Below, piece after piece: positions 1,606 through 57,401 of a DNA stretch of 64,000 bases. Both the position numbers and the translations under genes were made by a program. Every line of letters begins with the position of its first letter. The stretch's first letter is position 1. This stretch comes from an uncultured Candidatus Saccharibacteria bacterium. GTDB taxonomy: Bacteria; Patescibacteriota; Minisyncoccia; UBA6257. The DNA is taken from contig CAZUBI010000001.1 in NCBI GenBank assembly GCA_964618625.1, forward strand, positions 254,930 through 318,929, written 5' to 3'. The notes below the pieces were generated by a model, which was not told where the DNA came from, did not search any database, and worked only from the letters and a program-made list of their open reading frames with translations.

Positions 1606-4557
1606 TTATCCTTTTATGACTGCCAAAGGTTTTAATTGGACTATTTTTTTAGCTAACCCGGCTTGATGAACTACTTCTACTACTTCATCAACATCTTTAT
1701 AGGCCAAAGGGGCTTCTTCAGCCAAATCAGAAAGAGATCCTGACTTAACTATTATACCTTTTTTAGCAAGTTGTTGTAAAACTTCTCTACTGCTTGTTTC
1801 TCTTTTTGCTTCATGACGGGACATTGTCCTTCCAGCACCATGACAAACAGTATAAAAAGCTTCTTTTGATTTTTCAGTACCCATTAAAATATAGGAGGCT
1901 GTTCCCATTGTGCCGGGAATTAACACTGGCTGATCGGGAAAAGCCCTTGTTGCCCCTTTACGATGAACGATTAATTTTATCATCTCTCCATCTACTTCAT
2001 GCTCCTCTATTTTTGCAATATTATGAGCCACATCATAAACCAAGTCCATTGATTCTTCTTTTAGTCCTAGAACTTTTTTCCAAGCATTTCTGATCAAATA
2101 AGTAATCATTTGGCGATTGGACCAGGCAAAGTTTGCTGCTGCTCCCATTGCCAAAAAATATTCTTTTCCCTCAGGAGTAGAAAAAGGAATTGCCGCTAAT
2201 TCTCTGTCGGGGAGAGAAATATTATATTTATTCATTGATTGCATAAAAAGACGGATATAATCTGTTGCCACTTGATGACCTAAACCGCGAGAACCAGTGT
2301 GAATAAGAACTACTACTTGTCCTTTTCTAAGACCCAATTCCTCAGCTAATTTTTCTTCATATACCTCGGTTACTTCCTGAACTTCCACGAAATGATTTCC
2401 GGATCCGAGAGTCCCTACTTGATCCCGTCCTCTTTTTTTGGCTAAATCAGATACAAAACAAGGATCTGCTTTTAAACATCCCCCTGACTCACAATGTTCG
2501 ATATCCTTTTCTGTAGCGTATTCTTTTTCTTTTAAATACTCGATCCCTTTTCCTAAAATTCTGTCCATTTCAGCAATATTAAATTTAAACTTTCCCCCTT
2601 TCCCAAGACCAGAAGGAACAGCATGAAAGATTTCTTCTATTAATTTTTCCAGATAGGGCCTGATTTCTTTTTCAGTATGTTTTGATTTTAATAATCTAAC
2701 TCCACAGTTAGAAACTACAAAATTGTCAGCAATAAAGTTATGGTCAGGGTGATTTACAGTAAAATCATAAACAAAATTTTGATAAGGAATTTTTTCAATC
2801 TTTTCAATTATACCCCAAACTAATCCTTTATCGCCATAAGCATATTTTTCTTTATATTCGTTAAATGATAGAAAATTAAAAGCTACTCGGGGAATTCCTC
2901 GTTTTCTTATAATTCCGTGACTATTTTCTTTAAAGAGAGAATGATAGAGAAATTGAAAACTAATATATTCTGAGACATATTTCTTAATTATTTGAGGAGC
3001 CAATTTTTTAAAATCCCCTCTCTTTCGGTACAACTTTCTTATCTCTCGTCTTGCCCTATCTCTCATTTCTACTATTTTTAATTTTTTCTTTAAATAATTA
3101 GCAGCCAAACAGGCTTTTTTATGTTTGCTTTGATTATATTCATAATTTATAACGCTAAAAAATTTAATGAGGTTTTTACTCTCACCCTTTATTTGTAACC
3201 TTAATCCTACGGTCTTTCCATATTTTCCTTTATATTGATACCCTGGTACTTCTTTAATAGAATAAGTCTGAACGCCAAATTCCTTTAATAGTTTCCCTAT
3301 ATCTTTTAAAAATAATTTGGCATTATTTTTAAATTTTTCAGCTTTTTGCATATTTAACTGAAGAGCGCAAAAGTTATATTTATTAAGAGTTGATGGTGAA
3401 GAAAGCTCCGCTCCAAAAAACGAAGCTAAGAATAATCTTTTTTGCCAAAGAGGACAATTGAATATCCAATTAGGAATTCTATATTTTTGATGGGTTTTCA
3501 AACTATAAGGTGTTCCTAAGGCCACTAATAAAATAGCAAAGGCAGAAGAGCCTATTTTAATACTGTACTCTGTTCTTGAAAATTTATAATTTCTATAAAA
3601 AGTAGTTATGGAGTGGTTTCTTTGCCTTGAATATATTTTTGGTGGCTTAAATCCAATTTTAAAAATATCTTTTTGAATTTCTTTCAAATCTTCCGGGTTA
3701 CCATAGAATTGAACCACTCCTTTTTTATTATTTACAAAACTGATTACCCCATCGCCAAAAATATAACCCATTAGTTTTAAGATAGAAGGAAGAGAAGAAG
3801 AATTATAAGTTAAAGGTAATAAATGACGAGATCTTATTTGATTTAGAATTTGAGATGAAGCATTTCCTTTGTTAGTTTTATTAAATTTCTTTAAATATTC
3901 TTTAAATCGCTTCTCGGCTAAAATAATTTTAGAAGAAGGATGCTGATAGTGAATTCCTTTAAATGGATAAGTTAAAACAAAATCATCTTTATTTAAAAAT
4001 CTTGTTTCTTTCATTCCGTTTTCTGTTTGTATGGGATGTTCTCCAGTAGCTTTAATTTTCTCTCCAGAATCTGTAATTATCCGATAAATAGTAGGGTTAT
4101 TATATCTTTGAAAAAAATGTATTAATGGAGAATCAATAACTGCTTTTTTTCTCAAATCTATAGTCTTTACTTCTTCACTTCCCCAAGACGACTCCATTTC
4201 TTTAATAGAGAGGTAGGCTCCATTTTTAAGTAAAATTTTACTCTCTGGAGAGAGGCAATTGATATCATATCCCACTGAACCAGGAGAAATTATGCCATCA
4301 GGTAGTTTTGTGGCAAAAACTCCGCCAATTGGTGCGCCATAGCCTTCATGAATATCTGGCATAGCTAAAGAATATTTTACAATTCCAGGAAGAGTAGTTA
4401 GATTAACTAATTGACTCAAACTTTTGTCTTTCATTACCTCATCTAACATTTTTTCAGTAATATAAATCCTCGCTGGAACCAGCATATCCCTCCTAAAAGA
4501 TTTTGGGATTTCCCAAAGATAATTATTTAATTTTATTAAATCAGATTTATTAAACAT
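1606..4557 (-). CDS. rtcB: RNA-splicing ligase RtcB, interrupted by an intein
   Basis: N-extein MFNKSD...GYDIN and C-extein CGVRLLKS...GSGNHFVE...HGAGR together give ~466 aa of RtcB; a 517-aa insert sits between them. Confidence 0.9.
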   Translation of the reverse strand: MFNKSDLIKLNNYLWEIPKSFRRDMLVPARIYITEKMLDEVMKDKSLSQLVNLTTLPGIVKYSLAMPDIHEGYGAPIGGVFATKLPDGIISPGSVGYDINCLSPESKILLKNGAYLSIKEMESSWGSEEVKTIDLRKKAVIDSPLIHFFQRYNNPTIYRIITDSGEKIKATGEHPIQTENGMKETRFLNKDDFVLTYPFKGIHYQHPSSKIILAEKRFKEYLKKFNKTNKGNASSQILNQIRSRHLLPLTYNSSSLPSILKLMGYIFGDGVISFVNNKKGVVQFYGNPEDLKEIQKDIFKIGFKPPKIYSRQRNHSITTFYRNYKFSRTEYSIKIGSSAFAILLVALGTPYSLKTHQKYRIPNWIFNCPLWQKRLFLASFFGAELSSPSTLNKYNFCALQLNMQKAEKFKNNAKLFLKDIGKLLKEFGVQTYSIKEVPGYQYKGKYGKTVGLRLQIKGESKNLIKFFSVINYEYNQSKHKKACLAANYLKKKLKIVEMRDRARREIRKLYRKRGDFKKLAPQIIKKYVSEYISFQFLYHSLFKENSHGIIRKRGIPRVAFNFLSFNEYKEKYAYGDKGLVWGIIEKIEKIPYQNFVYDFTVNHPDHNFIADNFVVSNCGVRLLKSKHTEKEIRPYLEKLIEEIFHAVPSGLGKGGKFKFNIAEMDRILGKGIEYLKEKEYATEKDIEHCESGGCLKADPCFVSDLAKKRGRDQVGTLGSGNHFVEVQEVTEVYEEKLAEELGLRKGQVVVLIHTGSRGLGHQVATDYIRLFMQSMNKYNISLPDRELAAIPFSTPEGKEYFLAMGAAANFAWSNRQMITYLIRNAWKKVLGLKEESMDLVYDVAHNIAKIEEHEVDGEMIKLIVHRKGATRAFPDQPVLIPGTMGTASYILMGTEKSKEAFYTVCHGAGRTMSRHEAKRETSSREVLQQLAKKGIIVKSGSLSDLAEEAPLAYKDVDEVVEVVHQAGLAKKIVQLKPLAVIKG
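2707..4257 (-). mobile_element. intein with LAGLIDADG homing-endonuclease domain inside rtcB
   Basis: Starts with Cys (CLSPESKILLKNG, block A) and has a TGEHP block B. Two LAGLIDADG-like motifs (LMGYIFGDGVISF, LASFFGAELS). C-terminal blocks VYDFTVNHPDHNFIADNFVVSN are followed by Cys+1 (TGT at 2704..2706, read directly from sequence). Confidence 0.8.
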
Positions 4558-4562
4558 AAAAT

Positions 4563-4976
4563 TTAGATGTCAAAAAGAATTATTGCCTTCCAATCACCAT
4601 TTTTGTCTTGATTGATATTTAATTGATGATAAGTTGCGGCTTTTATTTCTTTAGAAAATTCTTTCACATTTCTGCCTTCTATTATTCCTTTTATAGAATT
4701 ATCTGTTAATTTTTCTATTTTTACCTTGTCAAAAATGCAATTATAAATATCTGATTTTGCTAAAACTTCATTTAAAAAATCCACCAAGAGCGCGTTGATA
4801 TCCAAAGAATGAATTTCTATTTGTTCTTTCTTCAAAACACTCTTTTGAAAAACATTTGGCTCAATAATATAAGTCATTCCTTCCAAAGCCCCTCTAAAAA
4901 TATCTTCTTTGCAAGAGGCTGTTATTTCTAATCTAATATCTGCTGGATGAGATAAAACCTTGTATTTATAACTCAT
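4563..4976 (-). CDS. archease (RtcB activator)
   Basis: 137 aa; HPADIRLEITASCKEDIFRGALEGM N-terminal motif; lies immediately downstream of rtcB. Confidence 0.7.
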   Translation of the reverse strand: MSYKYKVLSHPADIRLEITASCKEDIFRGALEGMTYIIEPNVFQKSVLKKEQIEIHSLDINALLVDFLNEVLAKSDIYNCIFDKVKIEKLTDNSIKGIIEGRNVKEFSKEIKAATYHQLNINQDKNGDWKAIILFDI

Positions 4977-10828: not shown

Positions 10829-13723
10829 ATGAAAGACTTCGCCAAAAAAAGGGAGGAAAAAATTAAAGCTCTTTGGCAAGAATCAAAAGAAAGAGAAGCG
10901 CAAAGGCTGGCTGAAAAACACAATTTTCTTTATGTTGACTTAAGAAAAGCGCCAATTGAAACAAGCGCTCTTTCTATAATCCCAGAAGAAGAAGCAAGAA
11001 AAACTAATATTATTGCTTTCCAAAAAATAGGAAATCAAATTAAATTAGCTGTTTTAGACCCATTTAACGCTGAAACAATAAGAACAATTGAAAAAATCAA
11101 AAAAGAAAGATATAAAGTTGCCGTTTTTGTTGTTACTGAGGAAAGCCTTAATTGGGCATGGAAAAATTATGCTTTTGTCCATGAGCACCAAAAAGAATTA
11201 TCAAATTTTATAGAAATAACTGACACTAAGTCAATTGAATTTTCCGATCTTCATCAAGAACTTTTACCCCTTCCCATAGAAGAAGTCACTTCATTAGTCT
11301 CGCTTATTTTAAAATCAGCTGTTGAAATAGACGCCTCTGACATTCATATTGAACCGCAGGAAGATTACGCTCTTGTTCGTTTTCGTGTGGACGGTGTCTT
11401 ATATGATGTTTCTGAAATAGAAAAAAAGAAACACCGCGGCATTAATCAAAGATTAAAGCTTCTGTCTGGTTTAAAATTAAATATTGAAAATATTTCCCAA
11501 AATGGCAGATTTACTATCCAAAATAATAAAAGTTTTATTGATGTCCGCGCTTCCAGCTTACCAGGTCCTCATGGAGAATTTTTAGTATTCAGGCTCTTAA
11601 ACCCCAAACGAGCCGCTTTTGGTTTAAAAGATTTAGGTATTGACCAAAAAAGTATAGATGTTTTTAATCATTCTTTATCAGCACCAAATGGAATGATTTT
11701 AATCACAGGACCTACAGGTTCAGGAAAAACAACTACTTTATACGCTTTTTTAAAAAAGAAGATTTCCCCAGGAATAAAAATTATCACAATTGAAGACCCA
11801 ATTGAATATCGGCTTGTTGGTGTAAACCAAACTCAGACATCAAAAAAATATGGTTTTGCTAATGGATTAAAATCCATTCTCCGACAAGATCCTGATGTCC
11901 TTATGATTGGCGAAATGAGAGATGAGGAAACAGTAAAAACCGCTATACAGGCTTCTTTAACCGGACATTTGGTCTTTTCTACACTCCATACAAATGAAGC
12001 CAGCGGCACTATTGCCAGACTGGTTGAATTAGGCGCTGACGTCCAAATGCTTCCAAATGCGCTTAAATTAGTTGTGGCGCAAAGATTAATTCGACGCCTT
12101 TGTCCTGATTGTAAAGAAAAATACCAACCAACTCCTGAAATGAAAGAAAGATTAATTGAGGCTTTTAGCATTCTCTCTCCAAAAAGTGGAGTAAAAATAC
12201 CGAAAAATATTCCATGTCTTTATAAATCAAAAGGCTGCGCAAAATGCCATTGGCTGGGATATAAAAGCCAGATTGGAATTTTTGAATACTTTAATATAAG
12301 TCCAAAAATTATTAAAACAATCAAATCCGACGCTGACCAAAATGAAATAAGATCGAAAGCCATTGATGAAGGAATGGTGCCTCTTTTTCATGACGGTCTA
12401 TTGAAAACTATTGAAGGCATTACTTCTTTGGAAGAAGTTATGAGAGTGGCAGGTGATATTTCCTATATCCAGGAATTATATAAAGAATTATTTTCTCAGG
12501 TTTTGACTCGAGGCGTAAAAGTAAGCAGCAAAGAAGAAAAGAAAATAGAAGAATTGCTTCAAAAGAATAAATCAATTTCCCCATTACTAAAAGATAAATC
12601 TTCTGAAAGGCAAATTGCCATTATTTTAGCTACTGCATTAAAATCACGAGCCACAGATGTTCACTTTGAACCAGAAGAAAAAACCAGTGAAATTAGGGAA
12701 AGAATTGACGGAGTGCTCCATAAATTAGTTTCTTTTGATATCAACGAGCATCCTAAATTAATTAATGAATTAAAAGCCCTCAGCGGTTTAAAAACAGAGG
12801 AAACGCAAACAATTCAAGAAGGAAGATTCCGGCTTATTCTTCCTGATGAATCTTTTGACCTCAGGCTTTCAATAATTCCAGGCGGATATGGGGAAAGCGC
12901 CTCCTTAAGAATCTTGGGCGGAGAAGAATCTTTATTAAATTTAGAAAGCTTGGGATTTTTAAAAGAACAGGAAGAAGAAATAGAAAAAGTATTAGAAAAA
13001 AAAGTCGGATTAATTTTAGCTGCCGGGCCTACTTCTTCGGGAAAAACCACAACTCTATTTACAATACTTAAAAAACTTGCCAAGCCAGATGTAAAAGTGA
13101 TTACTGTTGAAGACCCTATTGAATATCGTTTACCTGGAATTATGCAAACTCAAGTTAATGAGGAAAAAGGATATACTTTTTCCAAAGTCCTTCGAAGTTT
13201 GCTTCGCCAAAACCCTAACATTTTCCTAATTGGAGAAATTAGGGACAAAGAAACAGCTAAATTAGTCTGGCAGGCGTCTACAACAGGGCATTTAGTTCTG
13301 TCCACTATTCATACAAATGACGCTTTAGGCGTTTTATCTCGTCTACAGAGTTTAGAAATACCTTCAAAAGAATTGGTGCCTGCTATTAACACTATTGTTG
13401 CGCAACGATTAGTCCGTTGCCTTTGCCCTCATTGTAAAAAAGAAATAAAAATTCCATCAGAAATGTCCAAATTTATCAAACCATCCTTAAAATATTTCCC
13501 AAAATACAAAAAACCGATAAAAATTTACCAAGCTCAAAGTTGCGCCAAATGTAGTTTTACTGGATATAAAGGCCAATCAGGAATATTTGAAATACTTATA
13601 CCGCCTTCAAAAACAAAAGATCTTACAAAAGTAAAATTTTCAAAATTAATTAACAGCGCTGTTATTAAAGTTTTACAGGGAATTACCTCATGGGAGGAAA
13701 TAAAAAGAGTGCTTGGAGTATAA
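10829..13723 (+). CDS. type II/IV secretion (GspE/PilB-family) ATPase with two tandem ATPase cores
   Basis: 964 aa; T2SSE_N-like N-terminus. Two full cores, each with Walker A (GPTGSGKTTTLYAFL / GPTSSGKTTTLFTIL), Asp box, His box (FSTLHTNEA / LSTIHTNDA) and tetracysteine motif (CPDC..CAKC / CPHC..CAKC). Confidence 0.85.
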   Translation: MKDFAKKREEKIKALWQESKEREAQRLAEKHNFLYVDLRKAPIETSALSIIPEEEARKTNIIAFQKIGNQIKLAVLDPFNAETIRTIEKIKKERYKVAVFVVTEESLNWAWKNYAFVHEHQKELSNFIEITDTKSIEFSDLHQELLPLPIEEVTSLVSLILKSAVEIDASDIHIEPQEDYALVRFRVDGVLYDVSEIEKKKHRGINQRLKLLSGLKLNIENISQNGRFTIQNNKSFIDVRASSLPGPHGEFLVFRLLNPKRAAFGLKDLGIDQKSIDVFNHSLSAPNGMILITGPTGSGKTTTLYAFLKKKISPGIKIITIEDPIEYRLVGVNQTQTSKKYGFANGLKSILRQDPDVLMIGEMRDEETVKTAIQASLTGHLVFSTLHTNEASGTIARLVELGADVQMLPNALKLVVAQRLIRRLCPDCKEKYQPTPEMKERLIEAFSILSPKSGVKIPKNIPCLYKSKGCAKCHWLGYKSQIGIFEYFNISPKIIKTIKSDADQNEIRSKAIDEGMVPLFHDGLLKTIEGITSLEEVMRVAGDISYIQELYKELFSQVLTRGVKVSSKEEKKIEELLQKNKSISPLLKDKSSERQIAIILATALKSRATDVHFEPEEKTSEIRERIDGVLHKLVSFDINEHPKLINELKALSGLKTEETQTIQEGRFRLILPDESFDLRLSIIPGGYGESASLRILGGEESLLNLESLGFLKEQEEEIEKVLEKKVGLILAAGPTSSGKTTTLFTILKKLAKPDVKVITVEDPIEYRLPGIMQTQVNEEKGYTFSKVLRSLLRQNPNIFLIGEIRDKETAKLVWQASTTGHLVLSTIHTNDALGVLSRLQSLEIPSKELVPAINTIVAQRLVRCLCPHCKKEIKIPSEMSKFIKPSLKYFPKYKKPIKIYQAQSCAKCSFTGYKGQSGIFEILIPPSKTKDLTKVKFSKLINSAVIKVLQGITSWEEIKRVLGV

Positions 13724-13924: not shown

Positions 13925-16063
13925 TCAACCCCTCACCTGCTTATCCACTTCTAAACTAATTTTCGTGGTATTAATAATTTCCTCCAATGGCATTGGGCTC
14001 CTTCTTTGATGCAAGCAAGAAGCTAAACTTTTTAACTCTTCAAAAAGCCCTTTATTTTGTTGACGCATTTTCATATCAGCTTTCACTCCATATGTTCTTA
14101 ACTTTTTATAATCATCCAGAATAAATACTCTGCCCTCAGAATATAACTCCATATATTCTTTACCAGCTCCGCTATCTCCCTGTGTTGTATAAACTAAATT
14201 AGCTAAAGAGCCGTCTTTAAATTTAATAGTGGAAACAAAATTATCAGTAGTAAGATAAAATGTGTCTTTTGGGGTTATTGCGCAAGCATCAATTTTTTCA
14301 ATTCCAGATTCAGCTAAATAGCAAAAAACATTAAACATATGGCAAGCATTGCCTAAAACTCTTCCTCCGCCTTCGCTGGTATTCACCCAATGGCTTGGCG
14401 CGAGATAAGAATCATTAACTCTATAATTAATTATTATCGGGCTGCGGCGATCCCTAATAGTTTCTTTTATTTTTTGAATGAACGGAGAAAAACGTCGATT
14501 AAATCCAACCGCGACAATTGGGGAATAATCAAAATTTTGTGTTTTTAATATATCCAAAATCTCTTTTAATTCTTCTTTGGTCAAGCATAATGGTTTTTCT
14601 ACAAAAATATTCTTTCCCGCTTTAAGAGTATCAATCACCATTTGAGCATGAAGATTATGCCTTGTACTAATGATAATAAGATTTATTTTGGGATCATTGA
14701 GTAATATTTTATAATCGGTTGTAGCAATACTCGCGTTATAGCGGCTGGCAAAATACTTGGCTTTTACCTGATCATGGGTACAAATTCCGCGAATTCTGTA
14801 AAATTCTCTTAATTTCATTAAATTAGGCAAATGCACGGTCTGGGCAAAACTTCCCACTCCAATAATTCCTAATTCAATTTTTCCTTCAATTTTTTGTGGA
14901 GTGGATAATTCAACAAACTGTTGCGAATCTTTTTCTTTTAAAATAGAGCCTGGATAAGAAAGCAAAACTGCTAATGGTTTTTTTTTGGAATTTAATAATT
15001 TATATGCCAAATCTGCCTGTTTTAAAGAATATTTTCCTTCAATCAAAGAACTAAAATCAATTTTTTTGTTTTTTAATAATTGCAGATAAGCCTGCATATT
15101 GCGATTTTCTGTCCATCTAACATAAGCATAAGGATAATCAATTCCTTTGTTTTCATAATCAGAATCTCCTCTGCCAGGGCCATAAGAAGTAGATATGCGC
15201 AATTCAATTTCCTTTTGATACCAAGGCAACCTATTAATTTTCAAACCAATATCCCCTACGACAACGACTTTCCCCTTTTTTCTTGTTGTTAATAACGCCT
15301 GATTAATAATTTCATCGTCTGAGGGATTAGCAGCAGTAATAATAGTCGCGTCTGCTCCTTGTGAATTAGTTAAATAATTAATTTTATTTAAAAGATTTTT
15401 AGTAGTAGGAGAAAAAATATTTGTTAATCCATTTTCTTTGGCTTTTTTTATTCTTTCTTTGGAAAGCTCAATACCAATCACCTTTATCCCGCTTGCCAAA
15501 AGAATCTGCGCAGTTAATTGGCCTATTAATCCTAACCCAACAACTACAGCACTTTCTCCTACGCGCAAATCAGCCTGCCTGACTCCTTGAAGAGCAATTG
15601 CGCCAACTGTGGCAGAACAAGCATCTTCAAAAGAAACTCCATTAGGAACTTTTACTGTTAAATTCCTTGGAACAGCTATAAATTCAGCATGGGAGGCAAT
15701 ATTTGCTCCTGCGCAAGCAACAATATCCCCTCTTTTAATATCAATTATATCCTTTCCGACTTTCATAACACGGCCGCAACAACTATATCCAGGAGTTACT
15801 CCCGCTTGAAGCATACCAGTTACTATTTTATAAGCATTGGAAAACCCCTGCTCTTTCACAAGCTTAATGCCTTTAGCTAATTTAGTTGGATGTTTTAAAA
15901 CCTTTAAAGGCAAAGGTTGCCCAGAAAAATTTAAACTTGATAATTCTGTGCCCGAAGAAATTAAAGAAAATAGATTTTCCACTAAAATCTGGCCTGCTCC
16001 GCAAGCCGGCGTTGGAACCTCTTCTACAACAACTTTTCCTTGTTTAAAAACTAATTGTTTCAT
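13925..16063 (-). CDS. bi-domain oxidoreductase (zinc-ADH/MDR N-terminal + Gfo/Idh/MocA C-terminal)
   Basis: 712 aa. N-terminal GroES-like/MDR with Rossmann GLGLIGQ. C-terminal second Rossmann GIIGVGSFAQTVHLPNL with Gfo/Idh/MocA-like fold. Confidence 0.7.
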   Translation of the reverse strand: MKQLVFKQGKVVVEEVPTPACGAGQILVENLFSLISSGTELSSLNFSGQPLPLKVLKHPTKLAKGIKLVKEQGFSNAYKIVTGMLQAGVTPGYSCCGRVMKVGKDIIDIKRGDIVACAGANIASHAEFIAVPRNLTVKVPNGVSFEDACSATVGAIALQGVRQADLRVGESAVVVGLGLIGQLTAQILLASGIKVIGIELSKERIKKAKENGLTNIFSPTTKNLLNKINYLTNSQGADATIITAANPSDDEIINQALLTTRKKGKVVVVGDIGLKINRLPWYQKEIELRISTSYGPGRGDSDYENKGIDYPYAYVRWTENRNMQAYLQLLKNKKIDFSSLIEGKYSLKQADLAYKLLNSKKKPLAVLLSYPGSILKEKDSQQFVELSTPQKIEGKIELGIIGVGSFAQTVHLPNLMKLREFYRIRGICTHDQVKAKYFASRYNASIATTDYKILLNDPKINLIIISTRHNLHAQMVIDTLKAGKNIFVEKPLCLTKEELKEILDILKTQNFDYSPIVAVGFNRRFSPFIQKIKETIRDRRSPIIINYRVNDSYLAPSHWVNTSEGGGRVLGNACHMFNVFCYLAESGIEKIDACAITPKDTFYLTTDNFVSTIKFKDGSLANLVYTTQGDSGAGKEYMELYSEGRVFILDDYKKLRTYGVKADMKMRQQNKGLFEELKSLASCLHQRRSPMPLEEIINTTKISLEVDKQVRG

Positions 16064-46379: not shown

Positions 46380-47003
46380 TTAACCAAATTTTCTTTTTGG
46401 TTTTAATAATTTATTTATTTTCTCTACAAGTTGTTCTTTTTCCTGATTATTATAATATCCTTCTATTTTACCAATAAGTTTTCCGCCTTTAAAAAACAAT
46501 AAAGCAGGAAGCTTTTTTATTTTATATTTCTTCAACAAAGAATCATCTTTTACTTCTGTTTTTTTATATTTTATATCCTCATCCTGAAATAATTCTTTTA
46601 TTGGAATTGAACGAAGTAAACATTCTATTGAGTTATTTTTAAATAATTCTGCTACAGCCAATTTGGTTGATTTTAAAATCTGAATATCAAATTTGTCTTG
46701 AGAAATTAAAAAACCTGGATGAATCGGCTGAGCTCCATATCTATCAACAAATAGATCTGAAATTTTCCTTGAATCTTCTTTAATCTCTTTTTTTATTTTT
46801 CTATACTCCTTTTCGGTTTTAGCAACTCTTATCGCACCGATCGGACAAGCTTCCTCACACTTACCACAGTTGATACATTTAGAATTATCAACTGCTATTG
46901 TTTTATTTTTATCATCCCAATAAAAGGCGCCAACAGGACATACTTCTATTCCGCCACAATCTTCTGTGTTGTCACAAATCTTAAAATTTATTAAAACTGC
47001 CAT
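46380..47003 (-). CDS. 4Fe-4S dicluster ferredoxin domain fused to a thioredoxin-like fold
   Basis: CxxCxxCxxxCP (CINCGKCEEACP) plus a second Cys cluster; C-terminal Trx-like beta-alpha pattern without CxxC. Confidence 0.5.
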   Translation of the reverse strand: MAVLINFKICDNTEDCGGIEVCPVGAFYWDDKNKTIAVDNSKCINCGKCEEACPIGAIRVAKTEKEYRKIKKEIKEDSRKISDLFVDRYGAQPIHPGFLISQDKFDIQILKSTKLAVAELFKNNSIECLLRSIPIKELFQDEDIKYKKTEVKDDSLLKKYKIKKLPALLFFKGGKLIGKIEGYYNNQEKEQLVEKINKLLKPKRKFG

Positions 47004-47033: not shown

Positions 47034-47066
47034 ATTCTACCAAAAAATCGCCTCTTTGGCGATTTT
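47034..47066. repeat. repeated terminator-like hairpin, copy 1 (AAAAAATCGCCTCTTTGGCGATTTT)
   Basis: 7-bp stem AATCGCC/GGCGATT, loop TCTTT, flanked by an A-run and a T-run. Confidence 0.8.
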
Positions 47067-47100
47067 AATGTGTTTCGACTGGGTTTAAACCATAATTAAT

Positions 47101-47937
47101 TTACGATGAATTAAGGACTTCTGATATTTTCAATTTCCCAAATTCATTGAATATGGTTTTAATACCAACCTCATTTTTCCACCATCCATTTTGTGCAAAA
47201 TTGCCAGTTGGTGTTACGGCTGAATTTACTCTGTACAACTTTGTATCTTGTGGAATATATTTCATCATATGTGCCCATGATCGCCTCATAGCAAACCATA
47301 CGGTTACGAGAATTATAGAATTATATGGTAATCCCAATTGATCCATCATATTCAATCCACCGCGCACATTATCTGGAACACTAATTGCAGTATCATGAAT
47401 AACTATACTTTCAGATGGAACATCATGTTCTATAGCCCATTCTTTAAATATTAATGCTTCTGACTTTTCTCGTTTTTCATAAATAGGCATACCACCAGAA
47501 ATGAAAATCTTAGGGGCCAACCCTTGTTTATATAAATCAACCGCAACTTCAATTCGTGATAAACTTTTACTTCCAAAGACAAAAATGACATCAGAAAGCT
47601 GAGGTGTATCCTCTTCACCAAAATATTTTGTTATGTCTTGCATTAAATTATCTAATTCCCTGTCTCCATCTTGAACCATACGTAATGTCCTAGAAACAAT
47701 TTGTGATTGTGCCTTCGCGCCAAGCACGACTAATTCCTGCCATGTGAGATTTTGATAAAAAATGTCAACAGGTAATCCAATTAATTCAAGCCAGCGAATA
47801 AATAATTCAAATCTAGCAAAGTGTTTATTTTCTTTCCCTATCGCGACTGGACGTTTCGCCTCTCGCTTAAGAATTGTTTCCAACTCTTTTACTGCGGGTA
47901 ATTCTGCTGAGTTTTTCCGATTTGAAATAATATTCAT
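47101..47937 (-). CDS. DUF218 (YdcF/ElyC-like) domain protein
   Basis: VIFVFGSKSLSRIEVAVDLYKQGLAPKIFISGG. Confidence 0.55.
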   Translation of the reverse strand: MNIISNRKNSAELPAVKELETILKREAKRPVAIGKENKHFARFELFIRWLELIGLPVDIFYQNLTWQELVVLGAKAQSQIVSRTLRMVQDGDRELDNLMQDITKYFGEEDTPQLSDVIFVFGSKSLSRIEVAVDLYKQGLAPKIFISGGMPIYEKREKSEALIFKEWAIEHDVPSESIVIHDTAISVPDNVRGGLNMMDQLGLPYNSIILVTVWFAMRRSWAHMMKYIPQDTKLYRVNSAVTPTGNFAQNGWWKNEVGIKTIFNEFGKLKISEVLNSS

Positions 47938-47945
47938 ATTTTAAT

Positions 47946-47978
47946 TCTACCAAAAAATCGCCTCTTTGGCGACTTTAT
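47946..47978. repeat. repeated hairpin, copy 2
   Basis: ctaccaaaaaatcgcctctttggcgacttt. Confidence 0.8.
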
Positions 47979-48892
47979 TATAATAACTTTTCTTGAGAAT
48001 ATCTTTTAAAGGCGTAAGTATAAATTAAATAAAACGCAGCATAACCTCGGTATTCTCCAAATGATTTGAATAATTTTCTCACCTTTTGCTCTGAAACTCT
48101 TTCCTTTTCGTTCAAATAAGCAGTCACGCTTATTCTTAGCCCCATATCATTAGCTGGAAGAACGTCATATCTGCCCATGCCCCGACACATCATATATTCA
48201 ACTGTCCAAGGACCAACACCTCTGATTTGAGTCAAAACATCCAAAATCCTTTCTTTATCCCATTTTTTCATTTTTTCTAGATTTATTTCTTGTTCGGCAA
48301 CTTTTTTTGATACATCAACTATATATTCAGATTTTTTAAGGCTAAGTCCAAGTTTTTTGATTTCTTCAGGTTTAACCTTAGCTAAAGATTCAGGGGAAGG
48401 AAAAGTATAGTATGTTTTACTGTTTATCTTTATTGACTTCCCATATTTTTCTACTAATCTTTTTCGTAAAGCGACAGCCACAGATAAGGCAATCTGTTGT
48501 TCGGTTATGGCAATTATTAAAGCCTCAAATACTGTCGGGGTTTTTGGGGGTCTTAAACCATAGAGATTTTTAATTATTTGAGCAAATTTTTTGTCTTTTA
48601 AACCAATTTTATAAAATCCCCTTATATCATCATCTATTCCAAGCATCCATTTTATCTTTTCTTCAATTAATGACTTCCCAGCTTTATCTGGCAAAATCTC
48701 TATTGAAAGTTTTGGTTTTTCTACTAAGCCTACTGACCTGACTTTTATAAGCTGAGTTTTGTCTTTGATTTTGAGAGCTCGCTCGTATACTCCATTACTA
48801 TAGTAATCAACACACTGAACAGGAAATCTTGAATAGAGACTCCCAACTAAATCAAAATTAAAGGGCGGTTTGGGTGTTATAAAGAATTTCAT
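47978..48892 (-). CDS. HhH-GPD DNA glycosylase (AlkA-like, DNA-3-methyladenine glycosylase II family)
   Basis: HhH-GPD motif LTQIRGVGPWTVEYMMCRGMGRYDVLPANDMGL. Confidence 0.75.
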   Translation of the reverse strand: MKFFITPKPPFNFDLVGSLYSRFPVQCVDYYSNGVYERALKIKDKTQLIKVRSVGLVEKPKLSIEILPDKAGKSLIEEKIKWMLGIDDDIRGFYKIGLKDKKFAQIIKNLYGLRPPKTPTVFEALIIAITEQQIALSVAVALRKRLVEKYGKSIKINSKTYYTFPSPESLAKVKPEEIKKLGLSLKKSEYIVDVSKKVAEQEINLEKMKKWDKERILDVLTQIRGVGPWTVEYMMCRGMGRYDVLPANDMGLRISVTAYLNEKERVSEQKVRKLFKSFGEYRGYAAFYLIYTYAFKRYSQEKLL

Positions 48893-48934
48893 TATTCTAA
48901 TTTTACCATACTATATTAAAAATTCTCAGCTTAA

Positions 48935-49045
48935 ACAAAAAACCGCCTCTTTGGCGATTTTAATGTATCTCGGTCTCCCGATAAAAAAGTTCGACGGCTA
49001 TCCCTAGGGCTATGGAACGATGTTGGAACCTATTTGGCAAAACTA
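48935..49045. repeat. repeated hairpin copy 3 with ~85-nt conserved extension
   Basis: aaccgcctctttggcgatttTAATGTATCTCGGTCTCCCGATAAAAAAGTTCGACGGCTATCCCTAGGGCTATGGAACGATGTTGGAACCTATTTG. Confidence 0.75.
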
Positions 49046-49615
49046 CAATAATCTTTTTTCTTTAAAGTTCTCTATATCTTCTGGCCGAAGAAGCACTGAT
49101 AAATCTGCATATTTTTGCATACCAAGTGAAGGAGCGTGTGAAAACCCAACATATTCTAGTTTCTTTTCTTTATGTTTAATATAGCAAACAGCTGGAATTA
49201 AGTCTGTATCAGAACTAACCAAAATAGCAGTATCATATAAATTATCTATTGCCCCTACGATTAAATCAACGGCTATTTTAACATCCGTGCCTTTTTCTCT
49301 TATTTTCCCTTCATCATACATAATTTTGCCACGTTTTATACTAAATCCTTCTTTTTCGATTCCTGATAAAAATTTCTGTTGACCTCGTACAATTTGTTTA
49401 CTCTTTTCAGTACCATTAAAATTTCTGGCAATTCCAACATAATATCTTTTTGATATACATTGACGTTCCCCAACGAGAAATTCTACAAACTTACTATAAT
49501 CGAACTTTAATCCTTCTGGGAAGCTAATCTCTTCATGTTTAAGATATTTGTAGAAATTATTCCCATCAATATAAACGACAACTTTCTCTTTTCTCTTAAA
49601 AGGTATGGTAGCCAT
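49043..49615 (-). CDS. NYN-domain (LabA-like) predicted RNase
   Basis: VVYIDGNNF...DVKIAVD...LVSSDTDLIPAV. Confidence 0.65.
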   Translation of the reverse strand: MATIPFKRKEKVVVYIDGNNFYKYLKHEEISFPEGLKFDYSKFVEFLVGERQCISKRYYVGIARNFNGTEKSKQIVRGQQKFLSGIEKEGFSIKRGKIMYDEGKIREKGTDVKIAVDLIVGAIDNLYDTAILVSSDTDLIPAVCYIKHKEKKLEYVGFSHAPSLGMQKYADLSVLLRPEDIENFKEKRLL

Positions 49616-49736
49616 ATACTTTAATTATACCATAAAAAAAAACTACCCTTGCCCAAAGGCAGGAGTAGTGCTTATAGTACTTTCATTATAGTCCTATTAA
49701 TTATTTTGTCAAGAGGATAATTGTGTATAAATTTTA

Positions 49737-49835
49737 TCAAAAAATCGCCTCTTTGGCGATTCCATGTATCTCGGTCTCTCGATAAAAGAACTAGACGGCT
49801 GTCTCTATGGAACAATGTTGGAGCCTATTTGACTC
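49737..49835. repeat. repeated hairpin copy 4 with conserved extension
   Basis: aatcgcctctttggcgattCCATGTATCTCGGTCTCTCGATAAAAGAACTAGACGGCTGTCTCTATGGAACAATGTTGGAGCCTATTTG. Confidence 0.75.
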
Positions 49836-50346
49836 TGTTATTTTCAACAAACTTTAAATAAATCTCCCTTAATAATCTCGCATCATCTAAGGCGTTATGC
49901 TCTTGGTACTTCGAAAAATCAACCCCCAATCTTTTACAAAATTTATTCTTATTTTCATTAAATTCCTCGGGATTAACTCCTGCAGCAAAAAGCATAGAAG
50001 CAAAATCAATAGGTATCCAATGAAAAGGATCTTTTTCTTCCTCAAGCAGTTTATAAAGATAAATCGCATCAAACTGACCAACATAAGCCAACATATATGG
50101 CTTTGAATCACCAATAAATTCCTTAATCTTCTGGACAGCAATTTTTCTACTTATTTTAAGTTCTGTAAGACTAGGGCTAATATTTTTCTTTACCCACTCG
50201 TCAATTTCACCATCATACTCTAACTCCATATACAATTCCTCGCCATTCGATCTAACTAAACCGATTGAGAGTATTTCTCCTTTGTATGGATTTAAACTTG
50301 AAAACTCTGTATCAAGAAAAATAATATTATTAGAAAATGGTTTCAT
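49825..50346 (-). CDS. DEDDh 3'-5' exonuclease (DnaQ-like fold)
   Basis: Exo I FLDTEFS; Exo III HNALDDARLL. Confidence 0.7.
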   Translation of the reverse strand: MKPFSNNIIFLDTEFSSLNPYKGEILSIGLVRSNGEELYMELEYDGEIDEWVKKNISPSLTELKISRKIAVQKIKEFIGDSKPYMLAYVGQFDAIYLYKLLEEEKDPFHWIPIDFASMLFAAGVNPEEFNENKNKFCKRLGVDFSKYQEHNALDDARLLREIYLKFVENNRVK

Positions 50347-50357
50347 ATATACCTCAT

Positions 50358-50388
50358 TTTACCAAAAAATCGCCTCTTTGGCGATTTT
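50358..50388. repeat. repeated hairpin, copy 5
   Basis: ttaccaaaaaatcgcctctttggcgatttt. Confidence 0.8.
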
Positions 50389-50425
50389 CCTTAGAACAGA
50401 AAGAGTTTTGTGATATGATATATCC

Positions 50426-50935
50426 ATGAAAGAAATTGAGCTTAAATTTAAAATAAAAAACTACAATAACACTAGATTAAAGATTGAAAGTACGGGTGCT
50501 GAATACAAAGGCAAATATAGACAGTTAGACCTTTGGCTTGATACTAAGAACAAAAGGCTTAAGCGTGAAAAAGAGGGATTAAGAATTAGGCAGCAGAATA
50601 ACAAGTCTGTGCTAACCTTTAAAAAAACTGAGCAATCTGATGGTAAATTTCGTGAAGCCGAGGAATTAGAAACAGAAATAAGCGACCCTAAAACCGCTCT
50701 TGAAATATTTAAAAGATTGGGGTTTGAAACGCGTGTAGAGATTAGAAAAGAAAGAGAAGTTTGGAAACTTGGCAAGGTAGAAATAAGTCTAGATGGAGTT
50801 AAAGACCTAGGTACATTTTTAGAACTGGAGGGTTCAAAGGAAAATATAGAAAAAGTTATTACAAAACTTGGGTTTAAAAGTCTATCGCGAATCATCAAAC
50901 ATTACGGAGAACTTCAGGAAGAAAAAAGAGGTTAG
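50426..50935 (+). CDS. CYTH-domain protein (triphosphate tunnel metalloenzyme / class IV adenylate-cyclase-like)
   Basis: N-terminal EIELKFKI (ExExK signature); 169 aa. Confidence 0.7.
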   Translation: MKEIELKFKIKNYNNTRLKIESTGAEYKGKYRQLDLWLDTKNKRLKREKEGLRIRQQNNKSVLTFKKTEQSDGKFREAEELETEISDPKTALEIFKRLGFETRVEIRKEREVWKLGKVEISLDGVKDLGTFLELEGSKENIEKVITKLGFKSLSRIIKHYGELQEEKRG

Positions 50936-50962
50936 GATTGAACTCTAGTTTCTCTTAAGCTA

Positions 50963-50993
50963 TTCACCAAAAAATCGCCTCTTTGACGATTCT
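50963..50993. repeat. repeated hairpin, copy 6 (degenerate)
   Basis: tcaccaaaaaatcgcctctttgacgattct. Confidence 0.7.
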
Positions 50994-50999
50994 AATTTG

Positions 51000-51071
51000 C
51001 TGCGGGACTTGGACTCGAACCAAGATCTTCTCCTCCAAGGGGAGACGTGACTACCATTGCACCATCCCGCA
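51000..51071 (-). tRNA. tRNA, probably Gln(TTG); unusual C at position 33
   Basis: hand-folded cloverleaf: acceptor TGCGGGA/TCCCGCA, T-arm CTTGG-TTCGAGT-CCAAG, anticodon arm TCTCC-CCTTGGA-GGAGA. Confidence 0.5.
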
Positions 51072-56307: not shown

Positions 56308-56393
56308 GTTTTTATTTTATATATTTGTTCTTATTTTACTATATTCTTAGTTAAAGCGAAAGTAAGAATTAATGAATAATGTCAGAATCTGTT

Positions 56394-57077
56394 TTAAACA
56401 TTAACTAACCTTTTGTTCTGCCAATATTCATAAAATGGTCCAATGATAAAACCAAACAAGAAATAGAAAATTAAATCTTCTAAAGGAATCCCGATGATAA
56501 TAATTCCACTTAAATATTGGGACATCCATGTTTTATGTATAAAACCGGGAAAAAGCCAAATAAAGGCATAATAAGATGGTAGCGATACAATAGCCATTAA
56601 AATCCCGCTGGCTAAAGCATTCAAAAACAGATCTCTTCTAGTATACAATATATAGATAGCTGCTGTTATCATTGCTATTGTACTAGCCCAAAATGAAGTA
56701 ATATTTAATCCCCAAAATAAAAAAGCAATTATAAAAAATAAAATCAAACAAATATTAAAGGCTCCGGTATCATTAGTCTTTTTAATGCGTTTTGATAATC
56801 TTTTTTTATATATAGCTCCATATAAAACCGCAGCTATACCACCATTACTAAATCCCAGTAGAAAATCCTCTATTCCTACTCTTGTATTAGTAATAGTTTC
56901 TGGCCTCCACCAATCAATTGTCCACCAAAGATAAGCAGTAATTACACTACCTATACCTACTAAAAAACTCATGAAGATCATTTCTTTTCTATAATCCTTA
57001 CGAAAGAAAAATAAAATCGCCCAAGGAATCAAAAAAACAATCGTTCCAACTAAATATGCATATTTAAAATTCAACAT
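56394..57077 (-). CDS. hypothetical polytopic membrane protein
   Basis: 227 aa, ~7 TM helices. Confidence 0.4.
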   Translation of the reverse strand: MLNFKYAYLVGTIVFLIPWAILFFFRKDYRKEMIFMSFLVGIGSVITAYLWWTIDWWRPETITNTRVGIEDFLLGFSNGGIAAVLYGAIYKKRLSKRIKKTNDTGAFNICLILFFIIAFLFWGLNITSFWASTIAMITAAIYILYTRRDLFLNALASGILMAIVSLPSYYAFIWLFPGFIHKTWMSQYLSGIIIIGIPLEDLIFYFLFGFIIGPFYEYWQNKRLVNV

Positions 57078-57203: not shown

Positions 57204-57401
57204 CTTTCTCTATTAATTAGGTCTCTATTAATCTGAAGCAATGTTTCCCTGATAAATTTTGTTTTTATATATAGAAAATAAAAATGTATTTTCAAGGTTC
57301 AAGCTAAACTAAGAATACTCTATTTTAGAGTATTCATATTATATAATATCTATATGGAAAAGTCAATGGTTGAGACAAGTCCACTGAAACTTTAGTGAAA
57401 G

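Follow-up and report, generated by a model that had tools for sequence, protein, structure and literature searches.

A candidate mosaic gene-boundary repeat brackets a NYN nuclease gene in Parcubacteria

The stretch of DNA analysed here (64 kb in all, hereafter the window) is AT-rich, with a GC content of 32.6%, and contains a NYN gene (LabA/DUF88; PF01936) flanked on each side by one copy of a short repeat, which is the subject of this study. Nearly all of the genes around the repeats are on the minus strand. A tRNA-Gln (UUG) gene in the same orientation as the repeats heads this cluster, which is rich in copies of a hairpin that we call H, and is followed by genes for a DEDDh exonuclease (RNase_T family, PF00929), NYN, an HhH-GPD glycosylase, a DUF218 protein and a ferredoxin-thioredoxin protein, with a CYTH gene on the plus strand (Table 1). 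The initial annotation had reported that H copies 3 and 4 share a further ∼85 nt in the 3' regions of the NYN and DEDDh genes, and had proposed a common 3'-untranslated region (3'-UTR) element, a small RNA (sRNA) or a cassette recombination site analogous to attC. The shared extension exists, although it is shorter than reported, at 80 nt in copy 3 and 74 nt in copy 4. Over the 74 alignable nucleotides the copies are 81% identical (blastn E ∼1e-10), and they differ by one 6-nt indel in mid-stretch. Two blocks within it, ATGTATCTCGGTCTCYCGATAAAA and CTATGGAACRATGTTGGARCCTATTTG, each occur exactly twice in the window, with no third match at up to 3 mismatches and none in 100 dinucleotide shuffles; nhmmer searching of the 64 kb returned copies 3 and 4 alone, and a repeat search gave the same pairs. 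The two-copy stretch thus exists and is not a product of chance.

Read along the coding strand, each place has a stop codon first, followed by Block B, Block A, and hairpin H with its T-run. The stretch had been described as running to within ∼10 nt of each stop codon; the NYN stop lies 6 nt upstream of copy 3, and the DEDDh stop codon, a TAG, lies inside copy 4, within AAATAG. Given the minus-strand orientation of the genes, the two copies form direct repeats (∼100 nt) that bracket NYN with its promoter and leader, and the segment between them contains nothing else. The two proteins are indeed unrelated (PF01936 NYN versus PF00929 RNase_T), and a description that links the stretch to two nuclease genes misleads: both copies belong to one gene, NYN, as its left and right flanks, and NYN is bracketed likewise in other lineages whose upstream gene does not encode a DEDDh exonuclease. 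On the reading favored below, the likeness of the two copies owes nothing to both enzymes being nucleases; they are alike because both descend from one module family and flank the same gene.

We favor the reading, to which we give a probability of about one half, that copies 3 and 4 are paralogues and belong to a mosaic gene-boundary repeat, which has three independently conserved modules. These are Block B (∼35 nt; consensus AAAYAGGTTCYAACRTCRTYCA-N7-SAGCY), which starts at or just past the upstream stop codon, Block A (a U-run and TCGRGAGACCGAG) and H (ATCGCC-AANNN-GGCGRT and a T-run on the gene strand). Each recurs separately in other Parcubacteria metagenome loci, and the repeat would represent a new mosaic gene-boundary family of Parcubacteria. 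Scanning metagenomes with the NYN protein yielded 39 loci (designated by L numbers, as are other loci below), and a Block B profile run on these and the window (245 kb) gave 41 nhmmer hits, 35 of them at E<0.05. A regular expression allowing up to 3 mismatches found 26 unique copies, all of which were intergenic, none inside a same-strand open reading frame (ORF), and all 26 on the strand of the flanking genes; where there was a same-strand ORF upstream, Block B lay within 30 nt of the stop codon in 14 of 23 copies. Block B is present on both sides of NYN in the window, L007 (NYN 82% identical), L016, L024 and L026; it is also found 3' of unrelated genes (NUDIX, DUF3795, CHAT, cupin) and flanks a 339-aa gene without a Pfam match. 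The proposal of a conserved element in the 3' flank of genes is borne out by these copies behind other genes in relatives, a search that the initial annotation had itself suggested and that might have found no further copies anywhere.

The modules occur in the combinations B-A-H, B-A, B-H, tRNA-H and tRNA-A. NYN is both preceded and followed by B-A-H in the window, whereas B-A precedes it and B-A-H follows it in L026, and B-A precedes it and B-H follows it in L024. In the close relative L006 (NYN 97% identical), Block B is kept after NYN and the remainder is replaced, while a second Block B, split by a hairpin, lies upstream of the NYN promoter. Such a ∼30-nt hairpin is inserted in three Block B copies, at one position (after TAAC/TAATG) and with both halves conserved. 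The Block A core, TCGAGAGACCGAG, is present exactly in L026 (twice) and in L004, where the same 29-nt trailer, which contains the core, comes after a genuine tRNA-Ser and after a tRNA-like fragment. The neighbors of NYN vary, being conserved in none of the loci, and a synteny search in relatives found no DEDDh, AlkA or CYTH gene beside NYN. Homologues of NYN carry the names Parcubacteria, Paceibacterota and Staskawiczbacteria, which places the window in a Parcubacteria/Patescibacteria genome; exact-protein look-ups recovered the same strain alone, in contigs that break at the repeats, the strain is present at 100% identity in SRR8482192 and related runs, and PADLOC gave domain-level matches only, for NYN and DEDDh. 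Literature searches found no description of these motifs.

We also scanned wider collections. Genome contigs (without the window's own genome) gave four Block A hits, about the chance number estimated for a pattern of 19 specified bases in that collection, and the only Patescibacteria hit, L004, was the informative one. Viral contigs gave no hits for H and 19 for Block B, mostly in one flanking context that we take to be a DNA cytosine methyltransferase coding motif (not checked against a protein library); on that assumption most of these hits are chance matches, and only L051, and perhaps L062, looks genuine. In L051, an IMG/VR contig, a perfect Block B lies 96 nt from the contig end, the side towards the end being visibly AT-rich and the whole locus having 52% GC. 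This arrangement may mark an integration junction or result from chimeric assembly; near the Block B no integrase was detected. Two further candidates were rejected: a 'copy' at position 16019 of the window is inside an alcohol-dehydrogenase-like coding sequence, and read-through of the NYN stop codon into Block B does not agree with the homologues, which end where NYN ends (190-aa proteins, 100% coverage).

Comparison of near-identical strains placed Block B exactly where gene order changes. L017 and L018 are 99.5% identical over 4778 nt, and homology is lost exactly after ...AACCAGGTTCTAACATCATTC, in the Block B after NYN; downstream of this point L017 has GreA, L018 has an unknown gene, cupin and MurD, and L043 has a third continuation from the same Block B base. 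The arrangement of L017 was also found in L012, and that of L018 in L013, L014, L015 and L047 i.e. in independent samples. Chimeric joins are argued against by the shared core of 22 nt, which is presumably shorter than the k-mers of the assemblers. The Block B tail (N7 + SAGC) stays with the unit downstream. A junction is also seen at H, as L012 and L017 are 99.8% identical with homology that begins in the H loop. Because the Block B core is the exact point at which neighbors switch in strains that are 99.5% identical, we suggest that dispersed copies act as recombination junctions that shuffle whole transcription units. The idea of a cassette site is upheld to the extent that close strains change their downstream neighbors at Block B, although the features of attC are absent. 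Homologous exchange between dispersed copies and site-specific recombination would both fit these junctions.

Block B resembles the 3' end of a tRNA. In its layout, GG-TTCYA is followed by 5 extra nt and by a 15-nt segment that closes with A-G, after which CCA or CYN is frequent; this would correspond to tRNA positions 52-76 if 5 nt were inserted after position 58. A real tRNA sits in place of the upstream Block B in L029 and L030, and the downstream Block B of L029 aligns to the 3' end of that tRNA-Trp with exactly one 5-nt gap, a score that 0 of 2000 shuffles reached. The linker CAAATTAGA and the H that follow tRNA-Gln in the window also follow Block B in L017, where the linker is identical, and in L024 Block B is followed by CAAATTGGA, which has one base different from the tRNA-Gln linker. 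Block A is found after both tRNAs and Block B. Block B does not fold like a tRNA or a T-arm. Other features were seen at the tRNA-containing loci: in L030 tandem 25-nt repeats (CCTTCGACTGCGCTCAGGGCAAGCT) extend from the 5' half of a Block B (CAAACAGGTTCTAAC) to the contig end; in L004 an identical trailer (CAGACAACATTTTTTATCGAGAGACCGAG) follows one tRNA-like fragment and the genuine tRNA-Ser ∼1.7 kb away, and an ORF without a Pfam match, which from its sequence we take to be the C-terminal part of an IS30-type transposase, lies beside several fragments that resemble tRNA 3' ends.

These observations bear on a second reading, possible but in our view doubtful, in which Block B is an att-like site derived from a tRNA 3' end and a recombinase encoded elsewhere inserts, excises or exchanges small transcription-unit cassettes at it, above all promoter-leader-NYN; copies 3 and 4 would then be attL and attR of a NYN cassette downstream of tRNA-Gln. 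It would suit the direct repeats that bracket NYN in several lineages with unrelated neighbors, the real tRNA that replaces the left repeat in L029 and L030, and the L029 right repeat as a significant copy of the 3' end of that tRNA. It would also suit the three different right-hand partners joined at the same Block B base, a weak dyad symmetry in Block B (GGTTC ... GAGCC), the perfect Block B of L051 at a switch from AT-rich to 52% GC, and the presumed IS30 transposase fragment (read by eye) and tRNA-like fragments beside Block A in L004. However, scans of 50 window ORFs, out of 55 with 110 aa or more, detected no integrase, transposase or serine recombinase, and none was detected near Block B in L004, L014, L017 or L051. 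The flanked genes are ordinary and of core type (GreA, MurD), the ∼30-nt hairpin inside three Block B copies is hard to square with a compact recombinase site, and homologous recombination between dispersed copies would yield the same junctions. A related and bolder proposal, which we regard as speculative and improbable, is that Parcubacteria have an unrecognised gene-shuffling system that exchanges whole transcription units between chromosomal positions and strains, and that Block B, derived from a tRNA 3' end, is its sequence-defined recombination site. The units would be tail-promoter-gene-core, with an outcome like that of integron cassettes and a distinct mechanism, and the ubiquitous NYN cassette would be the most frequent passenger or even part of the machinery.

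For the gene-boundary repeat, we aligned module H in 25 distinct copies from 13 sources (the window and 12 loci). The 18-nt AATCGCC-TCTTT-GGCGAT occurs six times in the window, all within 47046-50990. Copy 1 had been said to retain a degenerate version of the extension; ∼15 nt adjoining the hairpin do match (CGAAACACATTAAA versus CGAGATACATTAAA), and nothing beyond. In the 25 copies 98.7% of stem cells are paired, and all 17 one-sided stem changes give G·U pairs on the gene strand, where the opposite strand would give A·C mismatches. This restriction of stem variants to G·U on the gene strand points to selection on an RNA hairpin i.e. a predicted intrinsic terminator, and H has the GC-rich hairpin and U-run of such terminators and matches the consensus scans for both terminators and promoters. 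Its T-run is directly followed by G(G/A)TA(G/A)AAT, and TCGCCA (the 5' arm of H and the first loop base) is a -35-like hexamer 17 nt before a TG-extended -10 box. An ATG opening a long ORF lies 6-9 nt past the -10 box in 8 of 13 measurable cases, a spacing that implies leaderless mRNAs. H would plausibly end one transcription unit and start the next, leaderless one, and this double duty would explain why its stem sequence is conserved beyond mere pairing. B and A would be transcribed as 3' UTR between stop codon and terminator, and any partner would recognize them by sequence and not by a conserved fold. The fused terminator-promoter module (ATCGCC-AANNN-GGCGRT-T5-G(G/A)TA(G/A)AAT) measures ∼40 nt, and such fusion would account for intergenic regions as short as ∼45 nt and for many genes that are seemingly leaderless.

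Structural conservation of the extension, to which the initial annotation had looked, was not found. Minimum free energy folds of window copies 3 and 4 taken singly were no better than those of shuffles (z -0.6 to -2.2) and differed between the copies, and five B-A(-H) copies gave a near-empty consensus fold (-0.58 kcal/mol, 3 pairs) with no covariation. Rfam searches at gathering and E≤10 thresholds, covering the window, L004 and six loci, matched nothing on B, A or H. These results count against B-A as a functional 3'-UTR RNA element i.e. a stability or processing signal or a protein or nuclease binding site, possibly for NYN itself, where B-A may mimic a tRNA end to recruit tRNA-processing enzymes. 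B-A does lie right after stop codons and before terminators, always in sense; Block B sits in the loop of a terminator hairpin in L013 and L019; the optional hairpin is at one fixed position, as in structured RNAs; the gene around which the element is enriched encodes an RNase and also has a conserved leader hairpin; and a T-loop-like GGUUCYA motif is present. However, with no conserved secondary structure, covariation or Rfam family, with an acceptor stem that is impossible as its 5' strand is missing, and with varying distances to stop codon and terminator, we consider this reading unlikely. A discrete sRNA gene, as had been suggested, is also unlikely: a terminator is present, but the 190 nt upstream of each copy contain no promoter-like site. 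For copy 3 the nearest such site on the minus strand is farther upstream than 190 nt and falls within the NYN coding sequence; for copy 4 the DEDDh gene upstream has none.

Block B contains direct repeats, GTTC-N7-GTYC, 11 bp apart, and might be an operator for a transcription factor acting on the downstream promoter. The half-sites are one helical turn apart, and in L006, L007 and L043 Block B lies 18-20 nt upstream of a consensus -35. However, the three 18-nt cases are orthologous and therefore not independent, the distance to the next promoter ranges from ∼20 to >600 nt and yet the upstream stop codon is near, and the hairpin insertions split the site; we judge an operator very unlikely.

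We give hardly any credence to an integron-type attC, a miniature inverted-repeat transposable element (MITE) or a small protein-coding gene (MYLGLSIKELDGCLYGTMLEPI, plus strand). What attC has in its favor is the position at the 3' end of genes, the fixed orientation and the resemblance of TTCTAAC to RYYYAAC. The analogy fails, as there is no R''/R' inverted partner, no folded palindrome, and no integrase (IntI) in the scanned ORFs; within 150 nt downstream of the 26 Block B copies there was no inverted partner, the best match having 4/12 mismatches and positions being inconsistent, and NYN and its neighbors have promoter-like sites of their own. The composite has no terminal inverted repeats, as would be seen in a MITE; a 6-nt direct repeat, ATACAY, possibly surrounds the H insertion when the window is compared with L024. 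No credible ORF was found in B-A on either strand. The plus-strand frame has 22 codons in copy 4 but an in-frame TAG in copy 3, lacks its ATG in L004, and in L026 has no conserved start codon, downstream frame or stop; the minus-strand frame reading QIGSNIVP and then a stop has no start codon in copy 4, and variable positions show no period-3 spacing. A template/variable repeat pair of a diversity-generating retroelement was likewise rejected, as the differences are not confined to adenines and a reverse transcriptase is absent. The shared stretch is therefore neither a nuclease-specific 3'-UTR signal nor attC.

Several results also weigh against the mosaic gene-boundary repeat itself. Transcription of B and A and termination at H are predicted from the sequence. 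Block B is low-copy (3 in 64 kb, against 6 of H) and ∼10-fold enriched beside NYN (a rough count of NYN-adjacent versus other intergenic regions), and a general gene-boundary signal would not need such enrichment. Two candidate helices in Block B, GGUUC/GAGCC across a constant 19-nt interval and the T-stem-like ACAGG/CCAGU, are paired in 76.6% and 60% of cells, as in shuffled controls, and show no covariation. The tRNA covariance model (RF00005) hits no Block B, and alignments of Block B (window copy 3, L017, L024) to tRNA-Gln were not significant, with 17-23% of shuffles reaching the score. In principle, the breakpoints might show no more than where a conserved island ends, with no crossover involved.

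Table 1. Positions of the genes, repeat modules and other features discussed (window coordinates unless a locus is given).
Feature	Position	Strand	Remarks
tRNA-Gln (UUG)	50999..51071	-	
CYTH gene	50426-50935	+	
DEDDh exonuclease gene	49825..50346	-	copy 4 at 3' end; stop codon 49825-49827
NYN gene	49043..49615	-	stop codon 49043-49045
HhH-GPD glycosylase gene	47978-48892	-	
DUF218 gene	47101-47937	-	
Ferredoxin-thioredoxin gene	46380-47003	-	
Shared stretch, copy 3	48963-49042		
Shared stretch, copy 4	49764-49840		
Exact block ATGTATCTCGGTCTCYCGATAAAA	48963-48986; 49764-49787		
Exact block CTATGGAACRATGTTGGARCCTATTTG	49010-49036; 49805-49831		
Block B core, copy 4: CAAATAGGCTCCAACATTGTTC	49810..49831	-	overlaps DEDDh TAG; family-profile nhmmer E=0.0023
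Block B tail, copy 4: CATAGAGACAGCC	49797..49809	-	conserved SAGC 19 nt after GGYTC
Block A, copy 4: GTCTAGTTCTTTTA + core TCGAGAGACCGAG + ATACAT	49764..49796	-	core 49770-49782
Block B core, copy 3: CAAATAGGTTCCAACATCGTTC	49015..49036	-	6 nt past NYN stop; E=1.7e-4
Block B tail, copy 3: CATAGCCCTAGGGATAGCC	48996..49014	-	6 extra nt relative to copy 4
Block A, copy 3: GTCGAACTTTTTTA + core TCGGGAGACCGAG + ATACAT	48963..48995	-	core 48969-48981
Third, degenerate Block B: AAAACAGATTCTGACATTATTCA	56373..56395	-	1 nt past stop of 227-aa gene; E=0.039
H copy 1	47046..47063	-	∼15-nt Block A remnant on 5' side (47064-47085)
H copy 2	47956..47973	-	followed by TGGTAGAAT; ATG 6 nt later (leaderless DUF218 gene)
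H copy 3	48933..48962	-	terminator-like: stem 48939-48961 and T-run; 3' arm GGCGGT giving U·G; no adjacent -10 box
H copy 4	49731..49763	-	stem-loop ATCGCC-AAAGA-GGCGAT 49744-49760, T-run, TG-extended -10 box (GATAAAAT)
H copy 5	50368..50385	-	between divergent CYTH and DEDDh; -35/-10 for DEDDh
H copy 6	50973..50990	-	directly after tRNA-Gln, linker CAAATTAGA
Fused terminator-promoter sites	47034-47063; 47944-47973; 50356-50385		also L010, L011, L016, L017, L024, L026, L031
Hairpin-split Block B copies	L006 61-125; L017 4826-4880; L017 7025-7090		
Perfect Block B	L051 14690-14819		
ORF, presumed IS30-type transposase part	L004 3690-4298		
Block B 5' half and tandem repeats	L030 940-1030		
NYN leader	49634-49712	-	
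TTGACY-17-TATAAT module	∼57300-57380	-	also L017 3841-3913 and 6236-6308; L043, L007, L006
RtcB RNA ligase gene	1606-4976	-	
T2SSE-type ATPase gene	10829-13723	+	

The NYN leader has a consensus promoter, TTGACA-16-TATAAT, which would drive a short RNA (ACUAUAAGCACUACUCCUGCCUUUGGGCAAGGGUAG and U9), with a second TGGTATAAT box 8 nt before the NYN ATG. Its hairpin lies upstream of NYN in at least 25 loci, shows compensatory changes in 5 of 12 pairs and has no Rfam match; we regard it as a candidate attenuator, or as a candidate target through which this widespread LabA/DUF88 nuclease would regulate its own gene. A second reusable intergenic module consists of TTGACY-17-TATAAT, 5 nt and a short hairpin (TACCCTGTAATAGGGTA or TACTCTAAAATAGAGTA); two L017 sites carry it with 100% identity, and it follows tRNA-Trp in the window and Block B in other loci. 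Elsewhere in the window, an RtcB RNA ligase (983 aa) is interrupted by an intein (PF14890) and adjoins Archease, and a T2SSE-type ATPase (964 aa) matches its family in two stretches and may have an insertion or duplication.

The genomes of the Candidate Phyla Radiation (CPR) are tiny and from uncultured organisms, and their non-coding sequence is almost unstudied. On our reading, very short CPR intergenic regions are assembled from a few reusable modules, i.e. a terminator/promoter, a tRNA-end-like block and a trailer block, which coincide with gene-order breakpoints between near-identical strains. If this holds genome-wide, it would offer a handle on the limits of transcription units in CPR bacteria, an explanation for the loss of local synteny, and sequence signatures with which to annotate gene ends and starts in thousands of metagenome-assembled genomes; if Block B were truly a recombination site, it would represent a new mechanism of cassette exchange.

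Bacterial interspersed mosaic elements (BIMEs) and their repetitive extragenic palindromic (REP) units in Enterobacteria, and the modular BOX elements (boxA-B-C) of Streptococcus pneumoniae, are extragenic, lie mostly at gene 3' ends, are co-oriented with the genes and transcribed, combine several motifs and serve as substrates for rearrangement. The repeats described here are similarly extragenic and dispersed, lie at gene 3' ends in the orientation of the genes, combine a few conserved motifs in varying ways and would act as rearrangement substrates. They differ from BIME/REP in having no long imperfect palindrome with a GTAG head, only the 6-bp stem of H being palindromic, and in that no REP-associated tyrosine transposase (RAYT) was found, nor any transposase in the scanned window ORFs. 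Compared with BIME/REP and BOX together, their copy number is very low, their host belongs to the Parcubacteria, one module resembles a tRNA 3' end, and another is a terminator combined with the promoter of a leaderless gene.

As in attL/attR pairs at tRNA genes, direct repeats that resemble a tRNA from T-loop to 3' end flank an insert, the left repeat of L029 and L030 is a genuine tRNA, and tRNA-Gln, which has the orientation of the repeats, is ∼1.2 kb away from copy 4 and ∼2 kb away from copy 3. However, no integrase was found in or near the insert, which is a single conserved gene with its own promoter, and the repeat has 5 extra nt in the T-loop region, conserved across lineages whatever tRNA adjoins. 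Block B shares with integron attC sites the gene 3' end, the fixed orientation and the role of a junction at which neighboring genes are exchanged. attC is defined by structure (an R''-L''/L'-R' palindrome with extrahelical bases) and not by sequence, whereas Block B is defined by sequence and has no palindrome, no IntI was found, and the genes have promoters of their own. H alone compares with Rho-independent terminators in its GC-rich 6-bp stem, 5-nt loop, U-run and G·U-only stem variation, and differs in that the stem sequence itself is conserved across genera, probably because the 5' arm doubles as a -35. The closest described analogues are the BIME/REP and BOX mosaics together with tRNA-derived att repeats, and the defining features of the family described here differ from those of each.

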